From: Methanothrix sp.
GTDB lineage: Archaea > Halobacteriota > Methanosarcinia > Methanotrichales > Methanotrichaceae
NCBI GenBank assembly: GCA_963682135.1
Contig: OY821645.1
Coordinates: 32,001-96,000 of the forward strand
Length of the DNA stretch: 64,000 nt
Reading direction: 5' to 3'
Of the stretch, positions 4,021-50,488 are shown piece after piece. The notes beneath the pieces are model-generated. The model had not been told where the DNA came from. It ran no database searches and was given only the letters and a program-made list of their open reading frames with translations. Position 1 is the first letter of the stretch. Each line of letters starts with the position of its first letter. Both the position numbers and the translations under genes were made by a program.

Positions 4021-4739
4021 AGTGCGGAGGGTCACGAATACCCCAACCTTCAGGTTGGGGATGAAGTGAACCCTCGCCGTTTTTTGCGTTAATTCATATC
4101 GATCAACCGTTGCTTCTTTTAAAATGAAATCGTATTTGGCACTTTAGCCACAGGTGGTGCCACCCACCTATGGCTAGGATGTGATAAGCGTTGGAATTGC
4201 GCAGTTTTAGCCATGGCTATGGTCAAATTACCTACCACATCGTACTGGTGCCAAAGTATCGATACAAGATATTCTATGATAAGCGAGTTAAAAAGGATTG
4301 CGAGCTAATTCTCATCAATATTTGCATGGAGCAAGGCTATAAAATTCATGCAATGGAAATTGTAGACGATCATGTTCACTTGTTTCTGGAATTCCACCCG
4401 AGCTCTTCTCTATCAAGAGTCGTTCAATTTTTGAAAGGAGGTAGTTCATATAGAATGTTCAAGCTTCATCCCGAATTGAAAAAAAGATATTGGGGCGGAA
4501 GCTTGTGGTCAAGTGGCAAATTCTTTCGATCCGTCGGAAATGTGACTGCTGACACAATAAAGCACTATATTAAGGAATCTCAGGGGAAAACAAAAGCAGA
4601 ATCGCAATTTTGCAGATCAAAGGAATCTGGGCAAAGAAGGCTCGATGATTTCTGATCTCCAGCTAACTGGGCGTGCGTGCGGCCCGAAGCATACCCCATC
4701 CCTTTAGGGTGGGGTGGCCGCACGCAGTTTGATTCTCAC
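4021..4739 (+). mobile_element. IS200-like element (tnpA only); boundaries approximate
   Basis: Subterminal hairpins CCCCAACC-TTCA-GGTTGGGG (4041-4060) and ACCCCATCC-CTTTA-GGGTGGGGT (4693-4715) flank tnpA. Confidence 0.7.
4191..4655 (+). CDS. tnpA: IS200/IS605 family Y1 transposase
   Basis: YHIVLVPKYR, HUH motif DHVHLF, LKGGSS, LWS, catalytic Tyr in IKHYI. Confidence 0.95.
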   Translation: MELRSFSHGYGQITYHIVLVPKYRYKIFYDKRVKKDCELILINICMEQGYKIHAMEIVDDHVHLFLEFHPSSSLSRVVQFLKGGSSYRMFKLHPELKKRYWGGSLWSSGKFFRSVGNVTADTIKHYIKESQGKTKAESQFCRSKESGQRRLDDF

Positions 4740-30519: not shown

Positions 30520-31826
30520 ACAGAGCGGGAAGTCCCCATCCTTCAGGGTGGGGATGAAAGCGGAGTCCTTTGCCATGATTACTTTCGCGCTGCCCTCAAC
30601 TAATATAAATATTAAGTATGCATATCTGTATTTATGATAATCAGCTACAAGTATCCCATCTTCCCTAACAAGGTCACTGCATGGAAGTTAGCGGAGAATT
30701 TGGATGCTTGCAGGTGGCTCTATAATCGGCTTCTCCAAGACCTGAATGAAGCAAAACGAAAAGGCATCAAGCTCAAGACCTATGATTCTCAGAACATGAT
30801 TCCTTCTTTGAAGCTCATAAATCCGAAGCTGAATCTCGTCTACTCTAAAGTTCTTCAGATGGTGAATTATACTCTTTGGTCTAACATCAAAGGACTCTTC
30901 GCATCAAAGAAGAACGGTCGGAAGATCGGTCATATTCGCTTCAAAGGGTATGGTTGGTACAATACCCTGAATTACAACCAATCCGGATTCAAGGTCGATC
31001 AAGATCACAGCATTTTGCATCTATCCAAGATAGGAGATATGCGGATCAAGATCTATCGAAAGATCGAAGGTTGCATCAAAGCTGTCATAATCAAGAGAGA
31101 AGGCAAGAGGTGGTTCGCCATAGTCCAGGCCGATCAGGAACCACAGCAGTTACCGGAAACTGGAGAAGCAGTAGGTCTGGATGTCGGTTTGACTTCCTTT
31201 GTGGTTGATTCTGTTGGCAATGAGATAGAGAATCCAAGATGTGGCGAGCAATCTGCTGATAAACTGGCAAGACTGCAACGAAAGCTAGCCAGAGCAGTGA
31301 GGGGATCGAATAATTATAAGTTCCTCAAGGATAAAATCGCTAAACTGCATAAAAGAATCAACTGCCAACGAGACGATTTCCTGCATAAGTTATCTCGGAT
31401 GTATGTCAACAACTTCGATATTGTTTGCGTCGAGGATCTTGATGTCAAAGGTCTGAAAGAGAAAGGCCATAATAATGGTATGCATCGCAGCATCCATGAT
31501 GCATCCTGGTCTAAGTTCATATTCATGCTTTCGTACAAGGCTCAAAGTGCTGGTCGAAAGTTGATAAAAGTAGAACCCAGGAACACCACTCAAAGGTGTT
31601 CAGCTTGTGGAAGCATCGTAAAGAAAGATTTGTCGGTACGAATACATGAGTGCCCTTATTGCGGATTCTCATGTGACAGAGACTACAATGCTTCCAGGAA
31701 CATACTCATCACAGGGATGGAACAGCCCGTAGCGCCCATAGAACCAAAACCTCTACATCACATAACAGTGATGCAAGTATTGGCGATGAAGTGGGAAGCC
31801 GCGCCCTTCAGGACGCGGTAGTTCAC
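30520..31826 (+). mobile_element. IS605/IS1341-type element encoding only TnpB (left boundary approximate)
   Basis: Left hairpin CCCCATCC-TTCA-GGGTGGGG (30534-30553); right hairpin GCCGCGCCC-TTCA-GGACGCGGT (31798-31819) followed by TTCAC ending 31826. Confidence 0.75.
30634..31821 (+). CDS. tnpB: RNA-guided endonuclease TnpB
   Basis: RuvC-I GLDVG, RuvC-II VEDL, Zn finger CSAC/CPYC, RuvC-III DRDYNASRNI. Confidence 0.95.
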   Translation: MIISYKYPIFPNKVTAWKLAENLDACRWLYNRLLQDLNEAKRKGIKLKTYDSQNMIPSLKLINPKLNLVYSKVLQMVNYTLWSNIKGLFASKKNGRKIGHIRFKGYGWYNTLNYNQSGFKVDQDHSILHLSKIGDMRIKIYRKIEGCIKAVIIKREGKRWFAIVQADQEPQQLPETGEAVGLDVGLTSFVVDSVGNEIENPRCGEQSADKLARLQRKLARAVRGSNNYKFLKDKIAKLHKRINCQRDDFLHKLSRMYVNNFDIVCVEDLDVKGLKEKGHNNGMHRSIHDASWSKFIFMLSYKAQSAGRKLIKVEPRNTTQRCSACGSIVKKDLSVRIHECPYCGFSCDRDYNASRNILITGMEQPVAPIEPKPLHHITVMQVLAMKWEAAPFRTR

Positions 31827-36639: not shown

Positions 36640-37365
36640 GTGAAATCCTCTGGCCCCCTGGTCTTTACCTTATCTCGGATTGAGAACCTCATGTATCAGG
36701 TGAGCTTTGATCCGGTGAAGATGAATGGAAAAATCATTACCAACACCTCTCTGGTAGAAAAGCAATACCTTAATGAGACGTTAGCCGTCTTTTATGATAT
36801 CATTCAAAGCGGCCTCTCCGTCTCGCCTTTGATTACGTTGGGAGAAGAGAGTGGACTGATACAGATTAAGACCGCTTGCAGTCTGACCATTAGCGGCGTT
36901 TTGCTCAAGTCCGGCATACCGGTGCGCCCCAAAGGCGGCGGCCTGATTGAGGTAATCGAGCGCGAGCCGATCAGATTCACAGACATGCTCATGTACTGGG
37001 CCACAACCATCGATCCCATAGACGTTCTCACCTCTCAGGAGCTGACGGACATCACGGGAATGATGCGTACGGGAAACGGTCGCATCCTGGGAAATCTGCA
37101 GGAGGCACCCATGCTGGCCAGGGAGAAAATCGAGGAGGTGCTTGAGCTTCTTTCTGCGGCAGAGTTTACCGGAGTCCTGGAGCTGTCTGAGCCGAATATG
37201 AATGTGTTGGGCGCTTCTGTGGAGAGGGATCACGTGGGAATAGCTCTAGTGGGCGGCACAAATCTGGTAGCGGCCGCTCGGGAATGTGGTATTTGTATTA
37301 AGCACGAGTCGATCAGTGGGCTGACCGATGTCGCTGAGATGAGGCATATTGAAGAGCTGATTTGA
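36640..37365 (+). CDS. NrpR-related DUF128 regulatory-domain protein (NrpRII-like, no HTH)
   Basis: FTLSRIENLMYQVSFDP, TACSLTISGVLLKSGIPV.P.GGG, TTIDP, GGTN. Confidence 0.75.
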   Translation: MKSSGPLVFTLSRIENLMYQVSFDPVKMNGKIITNTSLVEKQYLNETLAVFYDIIQSGLSVSPLITLGEESGLIQIKTACSLTISGVLLKSGIPVRPKGGGLIEVIEREPIRFTDMLMYWATTIDPIDVLTSQELTDITGMMRTGNGRILGNLQEAPMLAREKIEEVLELLSAAEFTGVLELSEPNMNVLGASVERDHVGIALVGGTNLVAAARECGICIKHESISGLTDVAEMRHIEELI

Positions 37366-37484
37366 TTTTTGATTGAATTAGCCGTATCCAAGCATGTCCT
37401 GCGTTCTGGGCGGCTCACGCCCTGCGGCGCGTTTTTTCGCGCGCGGCATCCCTGCATAGCGGATTACAGGAAATAACTTAAAAG

Positions 37485-37774
37485 GAAAAGTTAAGATAGT
37501 AGTAATGCCATCTCGCGGATGCACTAGATTTGGCGAGCATGCCCCTGCCGGGCAGGGCCGTCCGGGCCAGACGGATGGACTTAATGGGACGGAGAACGTC
37601 CCATTTTCACGCATCGAGGTGGTGTTCAGTTTCCTAGGAGATGCGTGAAAGGTCTGTGCATATCGAAAAGGGCCTTATGCAACTGTTAACTTTCTGAAAG
37701 TATTAGTATAAGTTGACATTATGCGTGAAAATCGTCTTTTTTTCGATATCTGTGAAGGCCGAAAAATGGCCGCC
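37485..37774 (+). promoter_or_regulatory. CRISPR leader of array 1
   Basis: Homologous to 42991-43282; shared end TTTTTTCGATATCTGTGAAGGCCGAAAAATGGCCGC abuts the first repeat. Confidence 0.8.
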
Positions 37775-38471
37775 GTCTCCATGACTGAAAAGTCGTGGCC
37801 GAATTGAAACTAATGTACGTTCTGCGTATCAATGGTTCCCATGGTAGTCTCCATGACTGAAAAGTCGTGGCCGAATTGAAACTAAAAATCAGATACTAAC
37901 GTTTCGGACTCACGGTCAGGTCTCCATGACTGAAAAGTCGTGGCCGAATTGAAACCATTAGCTAACGCAAAAGAATACCTCGCGCTAACTAAGTCTCCAT
38001 GACTGAAAAGTCGTGGCCGAATTGAAACGCTCTGAAAGCTTGCGTTTCTCGCGTTCCATCTCTTTTGTCTCCATGACTGAAAAGTCGTGGCCGAATTGAA
38101 ACCTTTTATCAGCCATTATACAGCTTCTTGTAAACGAGTCTCCATGACTGAAAAGTCGTGGCCGAATTGAAACCTTGGTTCGGCAGGGAATTCTGTGAGG
38201 TTGTCTGACTGTCTCCATGACTGAAAAGTCGTGGCCGAATTGAAACGGAGAGCTCTGACATTAAATCGCCTCCGACCCTCGCCAGTCTCCATGACTGAAA
38301 AGTCGTGGCCGAATTGAAACCATCTACATCATGTAGTTTTTTCAAACTCACCACTTCCCTTGTCTCCATGACTGAAAAGTCGTGGCCGAATTGAAACTTG
38401 TCAAAGTTCTCTTTGAACTTCAACGAGTGGGCATTGTCTCCATGACTGAACAGTCGTGGCCGAACTGAAAC
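37775..38471 (+). CRISPR. CRISPR array 1: 10 repeats, 9 spacers (35-41 bp)
   Basis: 36 bp repeat GTCTCCATGACTGAAAAGTCGTGGCCGAATTGAAAC with internal hairpin and ATTGAAAC end; last repeat degenerate, fixing + orientation. Confidence 0.98.
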
Positions 38472-38559
38472 TCTCTATCGTTTTGATATACCTTCAGAAC
38501 GCTATTTGTAGATATGCAGTCAAAAATAAGACGTCCTGCTAATTGAGACGGCCGGGGAC

Positions 38560-38796
38560 GTGCGGCTGGAAAGTGGCGGCGATACCGATTATGAGCTATA
38601 TGAGCTTATAGGCAAACACCCTGGACAGGGCGCTTATGAGCTCTCTAAGCTGAACGGCTGGACTGCAGGCCGCACACACTCATCAATATTGCGATTGGAG
38701 AAAAAAGGGCTCGTATTTGTGGAGCGCATTGTTCAAGGTGGGAGGACAAAGCTTGTGGTTCGTCCCAGGCCATGGCAGAATTTCTTCACACGATGA
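38560..38796 (+). CDS. Small winged-helix (MarR-like) DNA-binding protein
   Basis: LYELIGKHPG..AYELSKLNGWT..RTHSSILRLEKKGLV. Confidence 0.65.
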   Translation: MRLESGGDTDYELYELIGKHPGQGAYELSKLNGWTAGRTHSSILRLEKKGLVFVERIVQGGRTKLVVRPRPWQNFFTR

Positions 38797-38866
38797 AATG
38801 CGTCGGCCCGGATACTTCGATGATGTCGAAAAATGGCTGAGCGAACAGAGGGCTGAAGGGCCACTA

Positions 38867-40630
38867 TCACCGTCGGATCATTGAGACCGCTTTGGAAAAT
38901 ATCTTTCCCAAACCAAATCCGCTCTCATCCTTTAAAGACCAATCCTTTCCCATCTTTGCATCAGTCTCGCAAGGTATGACCTTTAGCATCTCATTTCCTG
39001 CCTGTTCCATTACTTCTTTGAGGAGCTTAGATGCTTTCGTTGCCTGTTTATCCGGAACTTCCAAAAGAATGCTGTCATGAACTGCATTAATAAGCCGAAA
39101 GTCGCTGTACGCAGGGGAAGCAATCTTTTCGTAGAGCCTGCCCAGAGCGATCTTTTGGAGATCAGCCCCTGTCGCCTGCACAGGAGTGTTTATCAGAGCA
39201 TTTCTGTGCTGAGGATCAACATACCTTATGCGTCCCAATGCAGATCTGGAAATTTTGTATGTCTCACTGCCGATAGCAGTAAGCCTTGCTCTATCTGAGA
39301 CCATTTGCTGCCAGCTCTTCAAACCGGGATAGGCGGCATAAAATCTATATAAAAATTCTTTTGCATCATCCTCGGTCAGGCTAGGCAGATTGGAGAGAAT
39401 CATATTTACTCCGCCCCCATAAATGGTCCCATAATTTAAAGTCTTGGCTATCTGCCTCTCTTCATCTGAGATCCTTGTCTTTTGAAAGATGGCCTGTGCC
39501 GTCTGCTTATGGGGATCAAGACCTTTCTTGAAGATATTTTGCATGGCTTTATCTCCGGAGAGCACGGCAATAATCCTCATCTCAATGGCGGAGAAATCCG
39601 CCTCCACGAAAGTCATTCCCTGCGAGGCCACAAAGAGCTTTTTCAGATGCGGCTCCCTTGGGATCTGCTGAATGTTCGGCCTGGAACAGGTGATGCGACC
39701 ACTTCTGCCGCCCAGCTGGGTCAGCCTTGGATAAATTCGACCTTCTCGGGCATTGTCCGTCCAATTTTTTAAAAATCCGATCTGCTGTCTGAGCTTTCTG
39801 TATTCGAGAAGAGAATTTATGAATGTCTCCTCTGGATGCACCAATAATATTCTCTCCAGGTCCGCAGCCGAAGTGCTCTCCAAGTTATATCCGTGGCTAT
39901 GCAACAACTTCTTCACGTGAACTGGATTGCGGGGATTGAATCCGCTCATTTTCTTCGACTTTGCATATTGTTGCAGCTTCTTCTCCAGTCTGTCCTTTTC
40001 TTTGACCAGACTCTCCAAAAGCCGCCGGCCTTTATCTTCGTTGAAGCCTATCCCGTTGTATTCGATCTCCACTAATGCGGGCAGTGCCTCAAATTCGATT
40101 TTGGCAACTTTTTCCAAACCCTGCATCTTGAGGAGAGCCCTCTGTTTAGCCTGGATCCTCTCCAGAATTGCGCAGGCTCTGGCGGCATAATCCATCTCTC
40201 TCGCCGAAGGCTTGCTTCCTTTGTCTGATGCTTTAGGACTGTCGTCAAAATGCCATCCCAATAAATCCCTGCAAATTGATTGCAGAGAATATTCTTGATA
40301 GGAAAGGCCATTGTCTAGAAGCTGTGAGGCCAGCATGGTATCCCAGAGATTGGGAAGCTCAAGTCTACTGTCGAAAATCTTTCTGATGACACCTAGATCG
40401 AACAGCAGATTATATCCCACAACCTGACAAGACGGGCACTCCAACAAAGGGATGATCTCGTCAAGCAGCTCTGGAGCCAGCAAAGCCTGACCGTAGTCAC
40501 CTGCAATCGAGATGAACCTGAGATTGGATGAGCTTGGCATGGAACCTGCGTCTGTACTCAAATGCAGATAGAAGGTGGAGGGCTCACTACGGGGCTTGCA
40601 GGACCAGGAAGAAAGAAGCGCTTTGGCCAT
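38867..40630 (-). CDS. polA: Family A DNA polymerase (no 5'-3' exo, degenerate 3'-5' exo) inside CRISPR locus
   Basis: SGRITCSRPNIQQIP, motif A ADFSAIEMR, motif B RQIAKTLNYGTIYG, NTPVQATGAD, motif C VHDSIL; GAGGAGGT RBS. Confidence 0.92.
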   Translation of the reverse strand: MAKALLSSWSCKPRSEPSTFYLHLSTDAGSMPSSSNLRFISIAGDYGQALLAPELLDEIIPLLECPSCQVVGYNLLFDLGVIRKIFDSRLELPNLWDTMLASQLLDNGLSYQEYSLQSICRDLLGWHFDDSPKASDKGSKPSAREMDYAARACAILERIQAKQRALLKMQGLEKVAKIEFEALPALVEIEYNGIGFNEDKGRRLLESLVKEKDRLEKKLQQYAKSKKMSGFNPRNPVHVKKLLHSHGYNLESTSAADLERILLVHPEETFINSLLEYRKLRQQIGFLKNWTDNAREGRIYPRLTQLGGRSGRITCSRPNIQQIPREPHLKKLFVASQGMTFVEADFSAIEMRIIAVLSGDKAMQNIFKKGLDPHKQTAQAIFQKTRISDEERQIAKTLNYGTIYGGGVNMILSNLPSLTEDDAKEFLYRFYAAYPGLKSWQQMVSDRARLTAIGSETYKISRSALGRIRYVDPQHRNALINTPVQATGADLQKIALGRLYEKIASPAYSDFRLINAVHDSILLEVPDKQATKASKLLKEVMEQAGNEMLKVIPCETDAKMGKDWSLKDESGFGLGKIFSKAVSMIRR

Positions 40631-40723
40631 TAGACCTCCTCAGATAAATCTTCATTATATGATTCTATTTCTGAAAACCTATATATCTTTCTGATGATAG
40701 TAGTAGCTTGGGGTTTTTTGGTG

Positions 40724-42451
40724 ATGGATAATTCTGGATCAAAAGCGGATGTGCCGGATCTAATCCCGGCCCGTATGCTCAGCGAGTTCGCCTACTGTCC
40801 ACGGCTCTGCTATATTGAGTGGATCGACGGCGAGTTCGCAGATAATGAAGAGACGGTGGATGGCAGGTTTGTGCATCGCCGGGTGGACGCAAAGGAAGAT
40901 ACTATTCCCGATGATGAGATCGAAACTGAGACCGAAACAGTTCACGCTCGATCTCTGTTTCTCACCGGCCCCAAGGTTGGAATTACCTGCCGGATAGATC
41001 TCCTGGAAGGTGATGGCGAAAGGGTGACGCCTGTAGATTACAAGAGAGGCAAAGCACCTAACATTCCCGAAGGAGCATATGAACCGGATCGCGTCCAGCT
41101 TTGCGCTCAGGGCCTGGTTCTGAGAGAGAACGGTTTCAAATGCGACAGTGGCATCGTCTACTTTGTCCGCTCCAAAAAGCGGATTTCTATAGCTTTTGAT
41201 AAAGCCCTGATTAAGAGGGCAAACGATCTTATCTCCGATCTGAGGAAAATTGCAGAAAAGCGAGAGATTCCTCCACCATTGCAGGATAGCCCCAAGTGCA
41301 ATCGCTGTTCTCTGGCGGGCATTTGCCTTCCTGACGAGGTAAACCTTCTGCGGGACTCGGATGGAAAAGAAGCTGGTGAGGGTGGGCTCCTGGGCAAGAT
41401 CAGGAGGCTTCTCCCGGCCAGAGACGACACTATGCCGGTCTACGTTGTGGGGCACGGCAATACCGTTCGCAAGAAAGGTGACCTCCTGGAGATATGTTCC
41501 CGAGATGACGTCGCAGCAGGCAAAGAAGGCAGAATAAAGGAAGTGAGGTTAAGAGAGATCTCTCAGGTGAACCTTTTTGGTGGAGTTGATGTCTCGATGC
41601 CTGCCCTTGTCGAGCTTATGCAGCGGGGCATCCCCGTCCTGCACTTCACAAGGGGTGGATGGTTTCAGGGATTGAGCGCCGGGCATACTCATAAAAATGT
41701 GCAGCTACGCATGCGACAGTTTGCCTGGGCTGAGGACCGCAAGAAATCTCTGTCCATCGCTCGCGCTATAGTCTACGGCAAGATCAAAAACTGCCGGATT
41801 CAGGTACGCAGGAACTACGCTAAAGCCAACGCCCAGTCTCCTGATAATGCACTGGACAGGCTGGAGCGTCTTTCCAAGGATGCCAGAAATGCGTCCGGCA
41901 TCGATAAGCTTCTGGGAATCGAAGGCGCGGCAGCCGAAGTTTACTTTGGCTGTCTTGGTCAAATGCTCAAAGCCGATCGTGGATTCTCCTTTGAAAACAG
42001 GAATAGGAGGCCGCCCAAAGACCCTGTTAACGCGGTTCTTTCCTATATCTATGCAGTGCTTGCCAAAGACATGTTTGTCTCCCTCCTGGCGGTAGGCTTC
42101 GATCCGTATCTCGGTTTCTACCACCAGCCCCGCTATGGCCGCCCGGCTCTGGCGCTGGACATGATGGAAGAGTTTCGGCCGGTGATTGCTGATGCCACTG
42201 CCATCACCCTATTCAACAAAGGTGAGCTATCAGATAAGGATTTTATCAAGACGGGAATCGGAGTGTCTCTGACCTCCAAGGGAAAGAAAAAGGTCATAGC
42301 AGGCTACGAGAGACGCATGGAGACGGAGATCACTCATCCCCTCTTCGGATACAGCGTCAGCTACAGGAGGGTTCAGGAAGTGCAGGCGCGGCTGTTGTCC
42401 AGAACAATTTCCGGTGAGATCAAGGAGTATCCTGCATTTTACAGGAAGTGA
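40724..42451 (+). CDS. cas4/cas1: Cas4-Cas1 fusion (type I-G/I-U)
   Basis: Cas4: YCPR, RIDLLE, DYKRG, QLCAQ, C..CSL..IC; Cas1: GIEGAAA..YF, RNRRPPKDPVNA, GFYH, LDMMEEFR; ORF extends to 40694. Confidence 0.95.
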   Translation: MDNSGSKADVPDLIPARMLSEFAYCPRLCYIEWIDGEFADNEETVDGRFVHRRVDAKEDTIPDDEIETETETVHARSLFLTGPKVGITCRIDLLEGDGERVTPVDYKRGKAPNIPEGAYEPDRVQLCAQGLVLRENGFKCDSGIVYFVRSKKRISIAFDKALIKRANDLISDLRKIAEKREIPPPLQDSPKCNRCSLAGICLPDEVNLLRDSDGKEAGEGGLLGKIRRLLPARDDTMPVYVVGHGNTVRKKGDLLEICSRDDVAAGKEGRIKEVRLREISQVNLFGGVDVSMPALVELMQRGIPVLHFTRGGWFQGLSAGHTHKNVQLRMRQFAWAEDRKKSLSIARAIVYGKIKNCRIQVRRNYAKANAQSPDNALDRLERLSKDARNASGIDKLLGIEGAAAEVYFGCLGQMLKADRGFSFENRNRRPPKDPVNAVLSYIYAVLAKDMFVSLLAVGFDPYLGFYHQPRYGRPALALDMMEEFRPVIADATAITLFNKGELSDKDFIKTGIGVSLTSKGKKKVIAGYERRMETEITHPLFGYSVSYRRVQEVQARLLSRTISGEIKEYPAFYRK

Positions 42452-42457
42452 TTTGAT

Positions 42458-42760
42458 TTGAGTGGAAGGAATTGTTATGTTGTAAGCTACGACATCATGG
42501 ACCAGAGACGATTACAGAAGGTCCACAAGACTATGAAGGGCTTCGGTGAGGCAATCCATTATTCGGTTTTTCGCTGTGATCTGACCGGCAAAGGCCGTGT
42601 GGAAATGGTGGCGGCGCTCACCGACCTGATCAAGCACGATCAGGACAGGATCATGATACTGGATCTTGGACCTATGGACGGCAGAGCGGATCAGAGGATT
42701 GAATTTCTCGGCATTCATGCCAAAGATCCGGACTCGCCCCGAAGGGCCGTTATCATATAA
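42458..42760 (+). CDS. cas2: CRISPR-associated endonuclease Cas2
   Basis: YVVSYDI...RRL.KV.K..KGFG..IHYSVF; directly after cas1. Confidence 0.95.
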   Translation: MSGRNCYVVSYDIMDQRRLQKVHKTMKGFGEAIHYSVFRCDLTGKGRVEMVAALTDLIKHDQDRIMILDLGPMDGRADQRIEFLGIHAKDPDSPRRAVII

Positions 42761-42905
42761 ATTTTGGGTGCATCCAGCACGTTGAATCCAAGCCTGCCCG
42801 GCGTTAAGGGTGCCCGGGATCTACCGCGCGTTTTTTCGCGCGCGGCACCCCAGAAGATTGGATGAAATAAAACAAATAAGATCCATTGTAGTCCAATGCA
42901 GGTCA

Positions 42906-43012
42906 GACAATATCGCTGGGGAAAGTTTAGATAGTAGTAATCGCTAAAAGATCCTTCAAAATCTATTTCATGTTCCGACAATATCGCTGGGGAAAGTTTA
43001 GATAGTAGTAAT
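42906..43012 (+). repeat. Exact 36 bp direct repeat separated by 35 bp
   Basis: GACAATATCGCTGGGGAAAGTTTAGATAGTAGTAAT at 42906-42941 and 42977-43012. Confidence 0.95.
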
Positions 43013-43282
43013 GCCATCTCGCGGATGCACAAGATTTGGCGAGCATGCCCCTGCCGGGCAGGGCCGTCCGGGCCAGACGGATGGACTTAATGGGACGGAG
43101 AACGTCCCTTTTTTCCGCGCATCGAGGTGGTGTTCAGTTTCCCAGGAGATGCGCAGAAGGTCTGTGCATATCGAAAAAGACCATTTGCAGACAGTAACTT
43201 TCTGAAAGTATTGTAATAAGTTAACAACATGCGCTGAAATTGACTTTTTTTCGATATCTGTGAAGGCCGAAAAATGGCCGCT
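42991..43282 (+). promoter_or_regulatory. CRISPR leader of array 2
   Basis: Homologous to the array 1 leader; abuts the first repeat. Confidence 0.8.
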
Positions 43283-44494
43283 GTCTCCATGACTGAAAAG
43301 TCGTGGCCGAATTGAAACCACCATATTGATAGCATGGTTGCAACTATATTTTTTTCATGTCTCCATGACTGAAAAGTCGTGGCCGAATTGAAACATTACC
43401 GGACGTTTTGTCCGTGTCTAACCCGAACATGGTTGTCTCCATGACTGAAAAGTCGTGGCCGAATTGAAACCTCAACGAATAGTTGTTCTTCTCTTCGTGC
43501 CTGTGGTCTCCATGACTGAAAAGTCGTGGCCGAATTGAAACGAGCCGGATTGGTCGAGGGGCATCCAGCTCATCAAGTCTCCATGACTGAAAAGTCGTGG
43601 CCGAATTGAAACCCTTTGATGTTTGTTTCAAGGAACAGAAGTAAGGTTGTCTCCATGACTGAAAAGTCGTGGCCGAATTGAAACGTCCGAGATTGTAAAG
43701 GAAAGACATAAATCTTGACGTCTCCATGACTGAAAAGTCGTGGCCGAATTGAAACACGTTTACCGTTACGATATCACATTCTGCATAAATGGTCTCCATG
43801 ACTGAAAAGTCGTGGCCGAATTGAAACTGGTTTGCATATGTAGTATCCCACAATGCCATAGCCTGAGTCTCCATGACTGAAAAGTCGTGGCCGAATTGAA
43901 ACCTTGTTCGAGCTGTGCAGATTACATGAATCCGCACCGTCTCCATGACTGAAAAGTCGTGGCCGAATTGAAACTTGCCAATTTTTTGGAGCTCTTCCAA
44001 AATATACCTGGTCTCCATGACTGAAAAGTCGTGGCCGAATTGAAACTCCATTGTTACTCTCACGATTGACACCTTCTATTTTTTCAGTCTCCATGACTGA
44101 AAAGTCGTGGCCGAATTGAAACTATTTCTCGGTGCAAGAACCTCAACTTTCGCCATCTGTCTCCATGACTGAAAAGTCGTGGCCGAATTGAAACCTTCTT
44201 TTCGGTTGTTTTGAATACCGAACTGAAAAATTGTGTCTCCATGACTGAAAAGTCGTGGCCGAATTGAAACGCAGAATATCAATTTTTAAGTTTTTCGCTT
44301 TCTTTGACCGTCTCCATGACTGAAAAGTCGTGGCCGAATTGAAACTTCTTTCACTTCCATAAAACTCACTCTCCGTGAACGTCTCCATGACTGAAAAGTC
44401 GTGGCCGAATTGAAACCATCCTCAATACCGAACTGCTTCATACTTTGTCTCATCCGGAGTCTCCATGACTGGAAAGTCGTGGTCGAATTGAAAT
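43283..44494 (+). CRISPR. CRISPR array 2: 17 repeats, 16 spacers (35-42 bp)
   Basis: Same 36 bp repeat as array 1; terminal repeat degenerate (44459-44494). Confidence 0.98.
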
Positions 44495-44827
44495 AGCCAG
44501 ACGTTTGTGGGGGTCCAATCGCGTGAGATGAAAATAAAATATTAGATAATCTTTTCAAAATTAAAATTTAAATGCATTCAACAAAAAAACTTATCTATAA
44601 GTAAAAATATTGCTAGACGAGGAAGCAAAATTGAGCTGCGCTGAATTTGAAGGAAAATTTGACTTTAAGTTATTCTTCAAAGCAGATATAGTCCGCAAGC
44701 TTGTCTGTTCTCTGCATGCATTTACAGGAAGAAGTGCCGCATCAAACGCCATCCTTGGGCCGATAAATGCGTCAGTTGGAATTGAAACAATGATTAGTCA
44801 ATTGTCATTTCTTGGCAGCGCAAGAGG

Positions 44828-45616
44828 ATGCCGATGAGGCCCACAGTGGCTCGCTTTGCTGTGACCGGCCAGAAGCTACCGCATCTAACAGAGACCATTA
44901 TTCTGGCGGAGAGGGTCCATGCAGCTCTGGTTCGCCTCTCCGACGGCTCTACTGTTTTCTCGGGATGTGATGAGCAGGGAAAGCCATTAGATGGGCATGG
45001 CCATGCCCATATCTTTTGCGAATCCAATATTGAATCCGGAAAATCCAATGAAGGCAAGATTACTCATATTACCATTTACGCTTCAATGGGATTTAGCTCT
45101 GAAGATATGCAGGCTCTGGAGAACCTCAGAGAGATCTGGGGAAGTAAAGACCCAGCGGTTCGTCTCCTTTTGCAGGGGCTGGGCAGCAGGGAGAACTCTT
45201 GCGGCCCGGACCCTGAGCGAGGCCACTGCCCGCTCTTGGCGAAGTCGAGAACCTGGGTCTCTCGCACGCCCTTCCTGCCTACGCGCCACCCCAAGGTCAC
45301 GCGGGCGGGCGTGCCCAAGTGCAACGCGCGGGGCTTGCAGATCGGCTCCCCGGAGCACGATCTCTTGCGGCTGCTGGAGCTGGCAGGACTTCCGGCACCG
45401 GTGGTTCTGGAGCCGGTGGCCGGCACAATCTTGGGCGTACGGACGGTTCCCTGGGCGAGCTTCGCCTGCCGGAGGAGCGGAGATGAGGGAAGGCAGGCAG
45501 CGGGGGCGGCACGCGGCTTTCGCATGGAATTTGCGGAAGAGGTGCAGGGGCCGGTGGCGGTGGGGTATGCGAGCCACTTTGGGATGGGGGGATTTGGGGC
45601 GGGTAGACCCAAATAA
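44828..45616 (+). CDS. csb2: Csb2-like RAMP, C-terminal (Cas6-like) half only
   Basis: GHGHAH, WVSRTPFLPTRHPK, C-terminal Gly-rich loop GPVAVGYASHFGMGGF; 262 aa. Confidence 0.8.
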   Translation: MPMRPTVARFAVTGQKLPHLTETIILAERVHAALVRLSDGSTVFSGCDEQGKPLDGHGHAHIFCESNIESGKSNEGKITHITIYASMGFSSEDMQALENLREIWGSKDPAVRLLLQGLGSRENSCGPDPERGHCPLLAKSRTWVSRTPFLPTRHPKVTRAGVPKCNARGLQIGSPEHDLLRLLELAGLPAPVVLEPVAGTILGVRTVPWASFACRRSGDEGRQAAGAARGFRMEFAEEVQGPVAVGYASHFGMGGFGAGRPK

Positions 45617-48840: not shown

Positions 48841-50488
48841 CCTGACCTCCCCATTTTTTAGGCACACATATGAATGGCATCCAGAATTTGACGCTGTTTC
48901 TTAGTGATCTCGGTCGTGATTCTTTCTCCATCCGGCAAGACCATGATCTTGATTTTTTCGAGTTCAGTGAACAATCCCTCAACCGAGTATCTTTTATTCA
49001 GCTCGGCATCGATCATCATTCGCATGAGCTTCATCCTCAAGATCAGAGCAAGGAATGAAATGAATAGGTAGCCCCTTAGACTACTGTTGGTCCTCAGGTT
49101 CGCGGGCATCAAATCGATGTCGTTCTTCAGAACATCGAATCCCTTTTCAACGATATCCTTGCTTCTATAAAGCGCAAGACATTCCACCCACGTGAACTCG
49201 CCTCGATAAAGCAAGATAAACTTTCCCATTTTATTAATAGCCTGGGAGACCGCATTTTTTCTAAGTGATACCTGAAACTTACCGTCTATTGCTTTCCATT
49301 CTATAAACTTGGCATCTCTTTTCGCAGTCGCCCTGAAAACTTCTCCAGGATTCATCCAGGGTTTCAGGTTCTTGGACTTGAGCACTTCCATCAAATCGTA
49401 GAGTCGCTTATAAAACGTATTTCTTTCCTGCTGCTCTCTTTTCTGATCGTAATATGCATATCCGTTCAGCTTGTTTTCACCAACATCGATCTCTACAGGC
49501 ATCACAAACAGCGGCTCTTTTTCATAGAGTTTTAGATGCTCTGGATCGTCAATGCTTTTGTGGATAGCAGATATCGCTTCTTTGACGTTCTTGAGATTAC
49601 TCGTTGGCGGAATAATGAACGACAGATCTGCAGATATCATCTCCTCGATATTGTCGGTTGAAAAGAAGCCTCTATCCATGATCAGAGTATAATTTCTGAC
49701 GCCCTGTGCATTCATTTTCTTGATAGTATTCTTAAGCGTAGATACATCTGCGATGCTTCCTGGGTAGAGATCATACATCAACGGTATGCCCAGATCTTTG
49801 TCCACGACTAGAGACAGATTGATTTGAGGCAGGTCGAGGCCATCTCGATTATAGCCGTATTCAAGGAGGCTGATGCTCTGAGAGTAAGACGAAAAGGAGG
49901 TTATATCGTAGACTAGCGTGCTGGCTGTGGATACTTGCTCAATGAGTTTGCGAGAGAATTCCAGATTCACAGTACCTTCACCGATACTGCTTAGCATTCG
50001 TGAAAGGCTCTGTGATGATAAGGGAAGATTCGGATGGTCTTCAGACATGACCGTACCTTCATACCAGCTCTGGATATGGGTTAGTGCTCGGGGGTGTGTG
50101 GCATAGTTCATTGCCAGTGTCAAAATCGGCCGGACTTCTTTACCAGGAAGAACATCAGAGAGGATCTTTTCTAGCTTAAGGTCCTCTGTGATCTTCTTGA
50201 GTGGAACGAATTCGCCATGCGATAGCACTTTCTTGGGGATTTGGTCTTTGGCGCGAACCTTCACGGGAACTCCATTGACATTCTTTCCCAAGTATTTGCT
50301 TTTCTGCCGAATTTGCTTCTTTTCCTTATCGTAATAAGGTGTAATTTCATATATGTATTCCAGGCCATTTATCTTTTTGGTTCGAATAAAAGATTTCATG
50401 TTGTATTTAGGCACAGCATACTATTTATAGTTTTTGGTCATCGATGGCGAAAATTGATCAGATATGCCTAAATTTCGGGGAGCTTAGG
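48841..50488 (-). mobile_element. IS1634-family insertion sequence
   Basis: Imperfect 24 bp terminal inverted repeats (48841-48864, 50465-50488; 18/24 by hand); 6 bp target duplication TTTGAG (48835-48840, 50489-50494). Confidence 0.85.
48858..50399 (-). CDS. IS1634-family DDE transposase
   Basis: YDITS, GYNRD..LPQINL, PGSIAD, MDRGF, YRSKDIVEKGF..LK. Confidence 0.9.
   Translation of the reverse strand: MKSFIRTKKINGLEYIYEITPYYDKEKKQIRQKSKYLGKNVNGVPVKVRAKDQIPKKVLSHGEFVPLKKITEDLKLEKILSDVLPGKEVRPILTLAMNYATHPRALTHIQSWYEGTVMSEDHPNLPLSSQSLSRMLSSIGEGTVNLEFSRKLIEQVSTASTLVYDITSFSSYSQSISLLEYGYNRDGLDLPQINLSLVVDKDLGIPLMYDLYPGSIADVSTLKNTIKKMNAQGVRNYTLIMDRGFFSTDNIEEMISADLSFIIPPTSNLKNVKEAISAIHKSIDDPEHLKLYEKEPLFVMPVEIDVGENKLNGYAYYDQKREQQERNTFYKRLYDLMEVLKSKNLKPWMNPGEVFRATAKRDAKFIEWKAIDGKFQVSLRKNAVSQAINKMGKFILLYRGEFTWVECLALYRSKDIVEKGFDVLKNDIDLMPANLRTNSSLRGYLFISFLALILRMKLMRMMIDAELNKRYSVEGLFTELEKIKIMVLPDGERITTEITKKQRQILDAIHMCA

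Follow-up and report, generated by a model that had tools for sequence, protein, structure and literature searches.

Why should the leader of a CRISPR array carry an exact 36-bp direct repeat that is not the CRISPR repeat, wrapped around a fragment of the size of a spacer? This question is raised by positions 42906-43012 of the window, by which we mean the whole 64,000-nucleotide stretch of Methanothrix sp. DNA analysed here. From sequence comparison, the locus is very probably the fossil of one off-target spacer integration by the resident type I-G Cas4/Cas1-Cas2. The features needed to describe the site are listed below, with positions counted in the window.

37487-37506, + strand: single-copy core motif of the paralogous leader 1, an uninterrupted comparison site.
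37775-38471, + strand: CRISPR array 1, 10 repeats, with the same 36-nt repeat as array 2.
42761-43282, + strand: leader of array 2, bounded by the cas2 stop and repeat 1; it holds the insertion and is homologous to the leaders of relatives.
42906-42941, + strand: copy 1 of the duplicated 36-bp target (X), 36/36 with copy 2; relatives are single-copy.
42942-42976, + strand: spacer-like inserted fragment (Y), with a 35/36 match to G000:C1:1073086-1073121 that ends at the insert limits.
42977-43012, + strand: copy 2 of the 36-bp target (X), which runs on into the conserved leader as the single copy of relatives does.
43283-44494, + strand: CRISPR array 2, 17 repeats of 36 nt and 16 spacers.

The preliminary description of this locus, made from the sequence alone, was accurate about its outline. 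The 36-bp duplication (42906-42941 and 42977-43012) is exact, with 0 mismatches and only two occurrences in the 64-kb window, and two copies of the 36-mer arose in 0 of 100 shuffles of the window, which served as a control. The bases directly outside the copies differ as described, A vs C upstream and C vs G downstream; a repeat search lists 39 nt at 97%, where two further upstream bases (TC) agree by chance. Between the copies lie 35 nt in the assembly. The whole structure is found inside the leader of type I-G array 2, 145 bp after cas2, and copy 2 and the start of the insert lie 270 bp and 341 bp, respectively, before the first repeat of that array, in keeping with the roughly 340 bp first given. 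The proposed match to the lengths of the resident repeat and spacers is also correct: the repeat is 36 nt long, and the 25 real spacers measure 35-42 nt, with six of 36 nt (the commonest length) and five of 35 nt. A degenerate repeat is present at the 3' end of both arrays, which places their leaders upstream on the + strand.

The duplicated 36-mer had also been called unrelated to the CRISPR repeat. The resemblance is weak: identity is 11/36 in the reversed comparison and 14/36 in the forward direction (p about 0.05, a value that about 5% of random genomic 36-mers reach), with 7 matches among the first 13 bases. The 36-mer ends in T, the true repeat in C, and the flanks of the 36-mer bear no likeness to the leader-repeat junction (3/12 and 2/12 identity). 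Folding gives -2.4 and 0 kcal/mol for the two strands of the 36-mer vs -11.3 (z -3.3) for the true repeat, which forms an 8-bp hairpin with the usual 3' handle. By folding and sequence, the 36-mer has neither the repeat hairpin nor the ATTGAAAC end. The term 'nascent array' used earlier is therefore too generous, as the site holds one spacer only and the duplicated 36-mer is without hairpin or crRNA handle.

A genome-wide scan for 36-nt segments that match at 31 or more positions, at periods of 64-83, returned 57 segments; 47 lie in the four CRISPR arrays and 9 in multi-copy tandem repeats, which leaves this locus as the sole isolated pair in the 3.04-Mb genome. A looser genome-wide scan revealed no further isolated repeat-insert-repeat structures.

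If the duplication was created by an insertion, the uninterrupted site should be found elsewhere. In three relatives (G011, G015 and G012) the syntenic cas2-leader region has one 36-mer and no insert, and both flanks map to overlapping coordinates. A single 36-mer without insert is present in 23/23 other Methanothrix leader records, a set in which at least 5 records repeat a locus already included and in which 18 of the loci come from core-motif scans of genome and metagenome contigs with titles, where given, of Methanothrix or Methanotrichaceae. In one of these leaders (L028) the single 36-mer is identical, at 36/36. In a pattern search, the motif turned up in 16 of 105 family genomes, with two copies 71 bp apart in the genome studied here (G000) alone. 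Furthermore, in a contig from the landfill-metagenome run X6, 42905 is followed directly by 42977, so that 71 bases are passed over, and 36 bases fit either side of the join; because this contig shows 10 differences upstream, it represents a related population and not the same strain. All of these empty sites belong to other species or populations, and none was seen in a strain of the same species. No empty allele is present among the contigs of runs X1 and X2, two public data sets discussed below, and polymorphism within the same population may still exist since contigs drop rare variants. Within the window, the core motif of leader 1, which precedes array 1, is likewise single (37487-37506) and has no insert beside it, as first noted. 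The empty single-copy site that the preliminary description hoped to find by alignment with related strains is thus seen in all 23 other leader records, and its counter-proposal, that relatives would share the structure, is contradicted by them.

The leader has further features of its own. An element of about 100 nt (43013-43125, and 37508-37620 in leader 1) directly follows the 36-mer and is highly conserved in 14 aligned leaders; it has predicted hairpins, the last of them a terminator-like stem with a T-run at 43092-43108, and shows little covariation (2/27 pairs). Its role could be that of a small RNA, or of a platform to which proteins bind. An Rfam search of 36900-44700 gave no family for the leader, the sole match being a sub-threshold, snoRNA-like one at 37329-37415, and a sigma-70 promoter scan gave 0 sites, although such a bacterial-type scan is not relevant to archaea. 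Right after cas2, at 42786-42857, lies a GC-rich element of about 70 nt, of which this genome and related ones hold many copies (80-88% identity) and which looks like a dispersed repeat. The RNA runs listed cover next to none of the window.

The origin of the inserted fragment can be traced. With the leader as query (positions 182-216), the insert matches G000:C1:1073086-1073121 on the same chromosome at 35/36 (97%, E 5e-9). This donor stretch is 36 nt long, and its sole difference from the insert is one extra T in a T-run. The bases that flank the match differ on both sides, so the limits of the insert are unambiguous, and the homology stops at those limits, as it does for a separate protospacer. 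The donor lies in the aIF5A/agmatinase intergenic region, about 1 Mb from the array 2 leader, and spans the last codon and stop of aIF5A, a short intergenic stretch, and the agmatinase ATG with the next four bases. The aIF5A/agmatinase locus was found in 54/58 other genomes of the genus. Its intergenic part varies by species; the insert fits the version of this genome best, while the version of the closest relatives has several differences from it and keeps the four-T run. Because the best match is to the genome's own copy of a variable region, copying ran from the chromosome to the leader. Judged by this match, the cell's own chromosome supplied the insert, from a housekeeping locus far from the array. 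Several earlier suggestions change with this result. The insert is 35 nt in the assembly as stated, but it is not unique; its reading as EHEIDFEGSFS on the minus strand has no meaning in a source that runs from a stop codon across intergenic DNA to a start codon; the origin is not a virus or plasmid but the aIF5A/agmatinase locus; and the possibility raised at the time, that the insert is ancestral local sequence, is at odds with copying from so far away.

The surroundings of the donor can be compared with known protospacer adjacent motifs. In the available text on the type I-U/I-G system of G. sulfurreducens, the PAM is TTN upstream of the protospacer (PMC6547450). On the minus strand, TTT is found directly 5' of the donor protospacer, a flank that lends modest support to acquisition by such a system, since by chance 12.7% of random 36-mers have TTN on at least one side. 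Off-target sites have no true leader. In type I-G of M. barkeri the PAM end goes to the spacer side, a rule by which the insert would be antiparallel to array 2, and fully processed prespacers integrate in either orientation (PMC10504553).

A self-matching fragment is not what the working arrays contain. Against the whole genome, the 25 real spacers gave only chance matches of up to 18 nt, and 73 distinct spacers from the loci of relatives gave nothing at E <= 0.01 against this genome. This fits expectation if self-targeting spacers are removed from working arrays; the self-matching spacer appears to be found only where a crRNA is unlikely. Searches for outside sources gave no protospacer. Array 2 had no match among PLSDB plasmids and INPHARED phages (distant mode), its comparison with the 105 family genomes was swamped by repeat matches and yielded no protospacer, and 22-26-nt parts of eight relatives' spacers had 0/8 matches in viral contigs.

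The candidate enzyme is encoded directly upstream of the insertion, within a group of genes that includes the following.

40694-42451, + strand: cas4/cas1 fusion (Cas4g/Cas1g, type I-G), the candidate integrase; NF049935 at 736.9 bits (cut-off 560), Pfam Cas1 and Cas4.
42458-42760, + strand: cas2; Pfam CRISPR_Cas2 at 1.3e-15, TIGR01573.
44828-45616, + strand: Csb2-like protein with the C-terminal (Cas6-like) half of the type I-G Cas5/6 profile only; TIGR02165 at 64.6 bits, positions 252-487 of 492.

The type I-G adaptation features are thus present: a Cas4/Cas1 fusion of the I-G type, Cas2 and two arrays. Cas4/1 aligns with the G. sulfurreducens protein PDB 7MI4 at 563 bits, and the aligned D87, K102 and E380 are conserved; these are the catalytic residues mutated in G. 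sulfurreducens Cas4/1 in the available account (PMC6547450). Judged by these matches, Cas4/1-Cas2 is apparently intact. A second match to the C-terminal half of Csb2 is found at G000:C1:2947832-2948695, its neighbours being a lone cas2 and a third array whose 36-nt repeat is related, and the two half-Csb2 proteins may be stand-alone processing nucleases rather than truncated genes. Csb1 (TIGR02570) gave no match in the genome, though the control was silent as well, and the sole Cas3 match above cut-off lies by an array with 37-nt repeats.

A family-A DNA polymerase gene with a 3'-5' exonuclease domain (38867-40630, - strand) stands divergently beside cas4/1. In the genus, 19 of the 41 match rows for this PolA-like protein outside its own genome have a Cas4/1 match on the same contig within about 7 kb. 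The gene is recurrently linked to type I-G adaptation modules and its product may be the gap-filling polymerase; no mention of such a link was found in a literature search and a review.

Several observations come together at this site: a 36-bp target duplication, a spacer-length insert, an adjacent TTT of the TTN type, and an intact Cas4/1-Cas2. It is on these grounds that an integrase-mediated event is favoured, and together with the self origin of the insert and the empty site they bear out the off-target integration by Cas4/1-Cas2 that the preliminary description had proposed. The mechanism would be the same if the enzyme were instead the other Cas1-Cas2 of this genome, encoded at about 2.298 Mb. 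This second Cas1 does exist (313.8 bits to TIGR00287); it lies beside the 37-nt-repeat array, with Cas3 nearby, and the spacers of that array are 32-39 nt long. Its repeat, however, is 37 nt and not 36, the insertion is 145 bp from the type I-G cas2 and within the leader of that very module, and the TTT flank fits the published type I-G PAM, which together make the second enzyme an improbable source. The 37-nt-repeat array (G000:C1:2283865-2288119, L068) is itself broken by two IS110-family transposase genes with identical scores, and Cas3 and the second Cas1 are found just beyond it.

An origin without Cas proteins is very improbable. A staggered break in the leader could have been repaired with captured chromosomal filler DNA, or replication could have switched templates, and the lengths would then be coincidental. 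The similarity between the 36-mer and the repeat is indeed weak, as such an origin would have it, and nothing speaks for it directly. It would require three coincidences, namely a stagger of 36 bp, the same as the repeat, an insert of 36 nt, the commonest spacer length, and a site in a CRISPR leader next to cas1-cas2; the TTN flank is present besides, and no second such structure exists in the 3.04-Mb genome.

The assembly must also be considered, for it is one T short of public reads in a homopolymer within the insert. At 42966-42968 it reads TTT, against TTTT both at the donor locus and in contigs from X1 and X2. In each run the sole contig that spans the T-run carries the extra T, which gives an insert of 36 nt with a 36/36 match to the donor. 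The missing T is likely either a homopolymer error or a strain variant. Contigs from X1 and X2, which come from two studies, cover both 36-mer/insert junctions with no differences there, and one of the two runs may be the source sample. That the structure as a whole is an assembly artefact is, given these contigs, scarcely likely.

Local tandem duplication by slippage, or a conserved regulatory repeat of the leader, can be set aside as next to impossible: the 36-mer does hold a motif that is nearly invariant in Methanothrix leaders, but the 35 nt that separate the copies have their source about 1 Mb away and occur in no other leader, the insert shares no homology with the upstream flank, and two copies occur in this genome only, so that the distant donor and the empty sites exclude both readings. 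Transposons, IS elements and MITEs were considered and rejected, since the insert, within its 36-bp duplication, has a single other copy and this lies in a conserved housekeeping intergenic region.

Mobile and defence genes are found elsewhere in the window. IS200/IS605 genes are located at 4191-4652 and 30634-31821 (TnpB) and an IS1634 transposase at 48858-50411. The stretch at 1785-25177 resembles a defence island, with all defence matches below curated cut-offs; these include an ATPase that matches retron and PtuA effectors below threshold, a DISARM DrmD-like SNF2 helicase, and DUF1156 and DUF499 anti-phage-associated proteins.

With off-target integration by the resident type I-G enzyme as the preferred explanation, the event can be laid out in steps. 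Cas4/Cas1-Cas2 would have captured a 36-bp self fragment, from the end of aIF5A to the start of agmatinase, with TTT adjoining. Two strand-transfer attacks on opposite strands, 36 bp apart, would then have taken place at the ends of the leader 36-mer and not at the leader-repeat junction. Gap filling would duplicate the 36-mer on both sides of the insert; product, donor and empty site can all be seen in the sequences. The event would also duplicate a conserved promoter-like motif of the leader. With neither hairpin nor 3' handle in the 36-mer, the self-matching spacer is probably not processed to crRNA, and its tolerance by the cell would follow from this.

The choice of target may or may not have been random. 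Methanothrix leaders hardly vary in the final 24 nt of the 36-mer, and this conserved part presumably resembles an archaeal promoter of the BRE/TATA type. It is conceivable, though unlikely, that the 36-mer is no random off-target and that promoter DNA bent by a bound factor is the archaeal counterpart of IHF sites, serving as a recurrent entry for new repeat-spacer units. A metagenome locus (L036:589-656) has a leader of the leader-2 type in which a single 36-mer runs straight into a lone, degenerate CRISPR repeat with 5 mismatches; the DNA beyond it is non-CRISPR, and neither the conserved leader nor the array is present. Its junction is the 3' boundary of the 36-mer that was used by the insertion, with up to 3 bases (GCC) that fit either side, and hints at repeated Cas1 activity at this boundary.

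Off-target integration has been observed in other systems. By the account of texts that cite it, work on the E. coli type I-E system showed integration by Cas1-Cas2 outside the array that created 'neo-CRISPR' loci in vivo (Nivala, Shipman & Church 2018), and a preprint among these texts reports circumstantial natural evidence of off-target integration in two other species. According to a citing paper, IHF favours off-target sites in E. coli. As far as these texts go, the Methanothrix locus is like the neo-CRISPR loci in that spacer-sized DNA entered outside an array and the target was duplicated, giving a repeat-spacer-repeat unit from non-CRISPR sequence. In E. coli, however, the proteins were over-expressed, whereas here the case is natural, in an archaeal methanogen, with a type I-G Cas4/Cas1 fusion and a 36-bp duplication. 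Unlike the E. coli loci, moreover, the target lies inside a CRISPR leader itself, and both the donor (self) and the empty site are identified.

Biochemical work allows a closer comparison. In the accessible portion of a study of P. furiosus, Cas1-Cas2 integrated in vitro into non-CRISPR DNA by paired attacks on opposite strands at repeat-length spacing (PMC6698737). The first base of the 36-mer is G, as P. furiosus prefers, and an A-rich block is found in mid-target as at P. furiosus sites, here GGAAAG at 15-20 (GAAAAG at 13-18 in the true repeat). The spacing is 36 bp here and was 30 bp on the plasmids used in vitro for P. furiosus; the far border base is T instead of the G/C favoured there, a preference that does not come from type I-G (PMC6698737). 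For G. sulfurreducens Cas4/1-Cas2, the predominant acquired spacer in the available account is 36 bp (PMC6547450), and the 36-nt protospacer with TTT at this locus is like the 36 bp and TTN of that module. Type I-G integration in vitro has a spacer-side fidelity of only 60-70%, with signs of non-specific integration (PMC10504553). In both G. sulfurreducens and M. barkeri, as far as the available texts describe it, integration occurs at the leader-repeat junction (PMC6547450, PMC10504553), whereas the site here is 270 bp upstream in non-repeat DNA. The PAM of the M. barkeri substrate is GAA on the overhang strand, with which TTT here agrees at 2/3 positions (PMC10504553). No natural off-target integration by a type I-G system or in a methanogen was found among the titles and opening lines of abstracts listed by literature searches, so within that scope the locus is a new natural case of a known process.

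What this locus offers is a natural event whose product, source protospacer and uninterrupted target are all readable from sequence, in an archaeal methanogen with a type I-G Cas4/Cas1 fusion. The idea that non-CRISPR DNA can give rise to arrays gains support from it, and the site would be a rare natural footprint of possible array seeding. It also indicates that self DNA is acquired naively in nature, and that such a spacer survives when it lands at a site that yields no crRNA. The single 36-mer found in relatives, in turn, is a defined natural off-target substrate with which recognition by the type I-G integrase and its 36-bp ruler can be studied.
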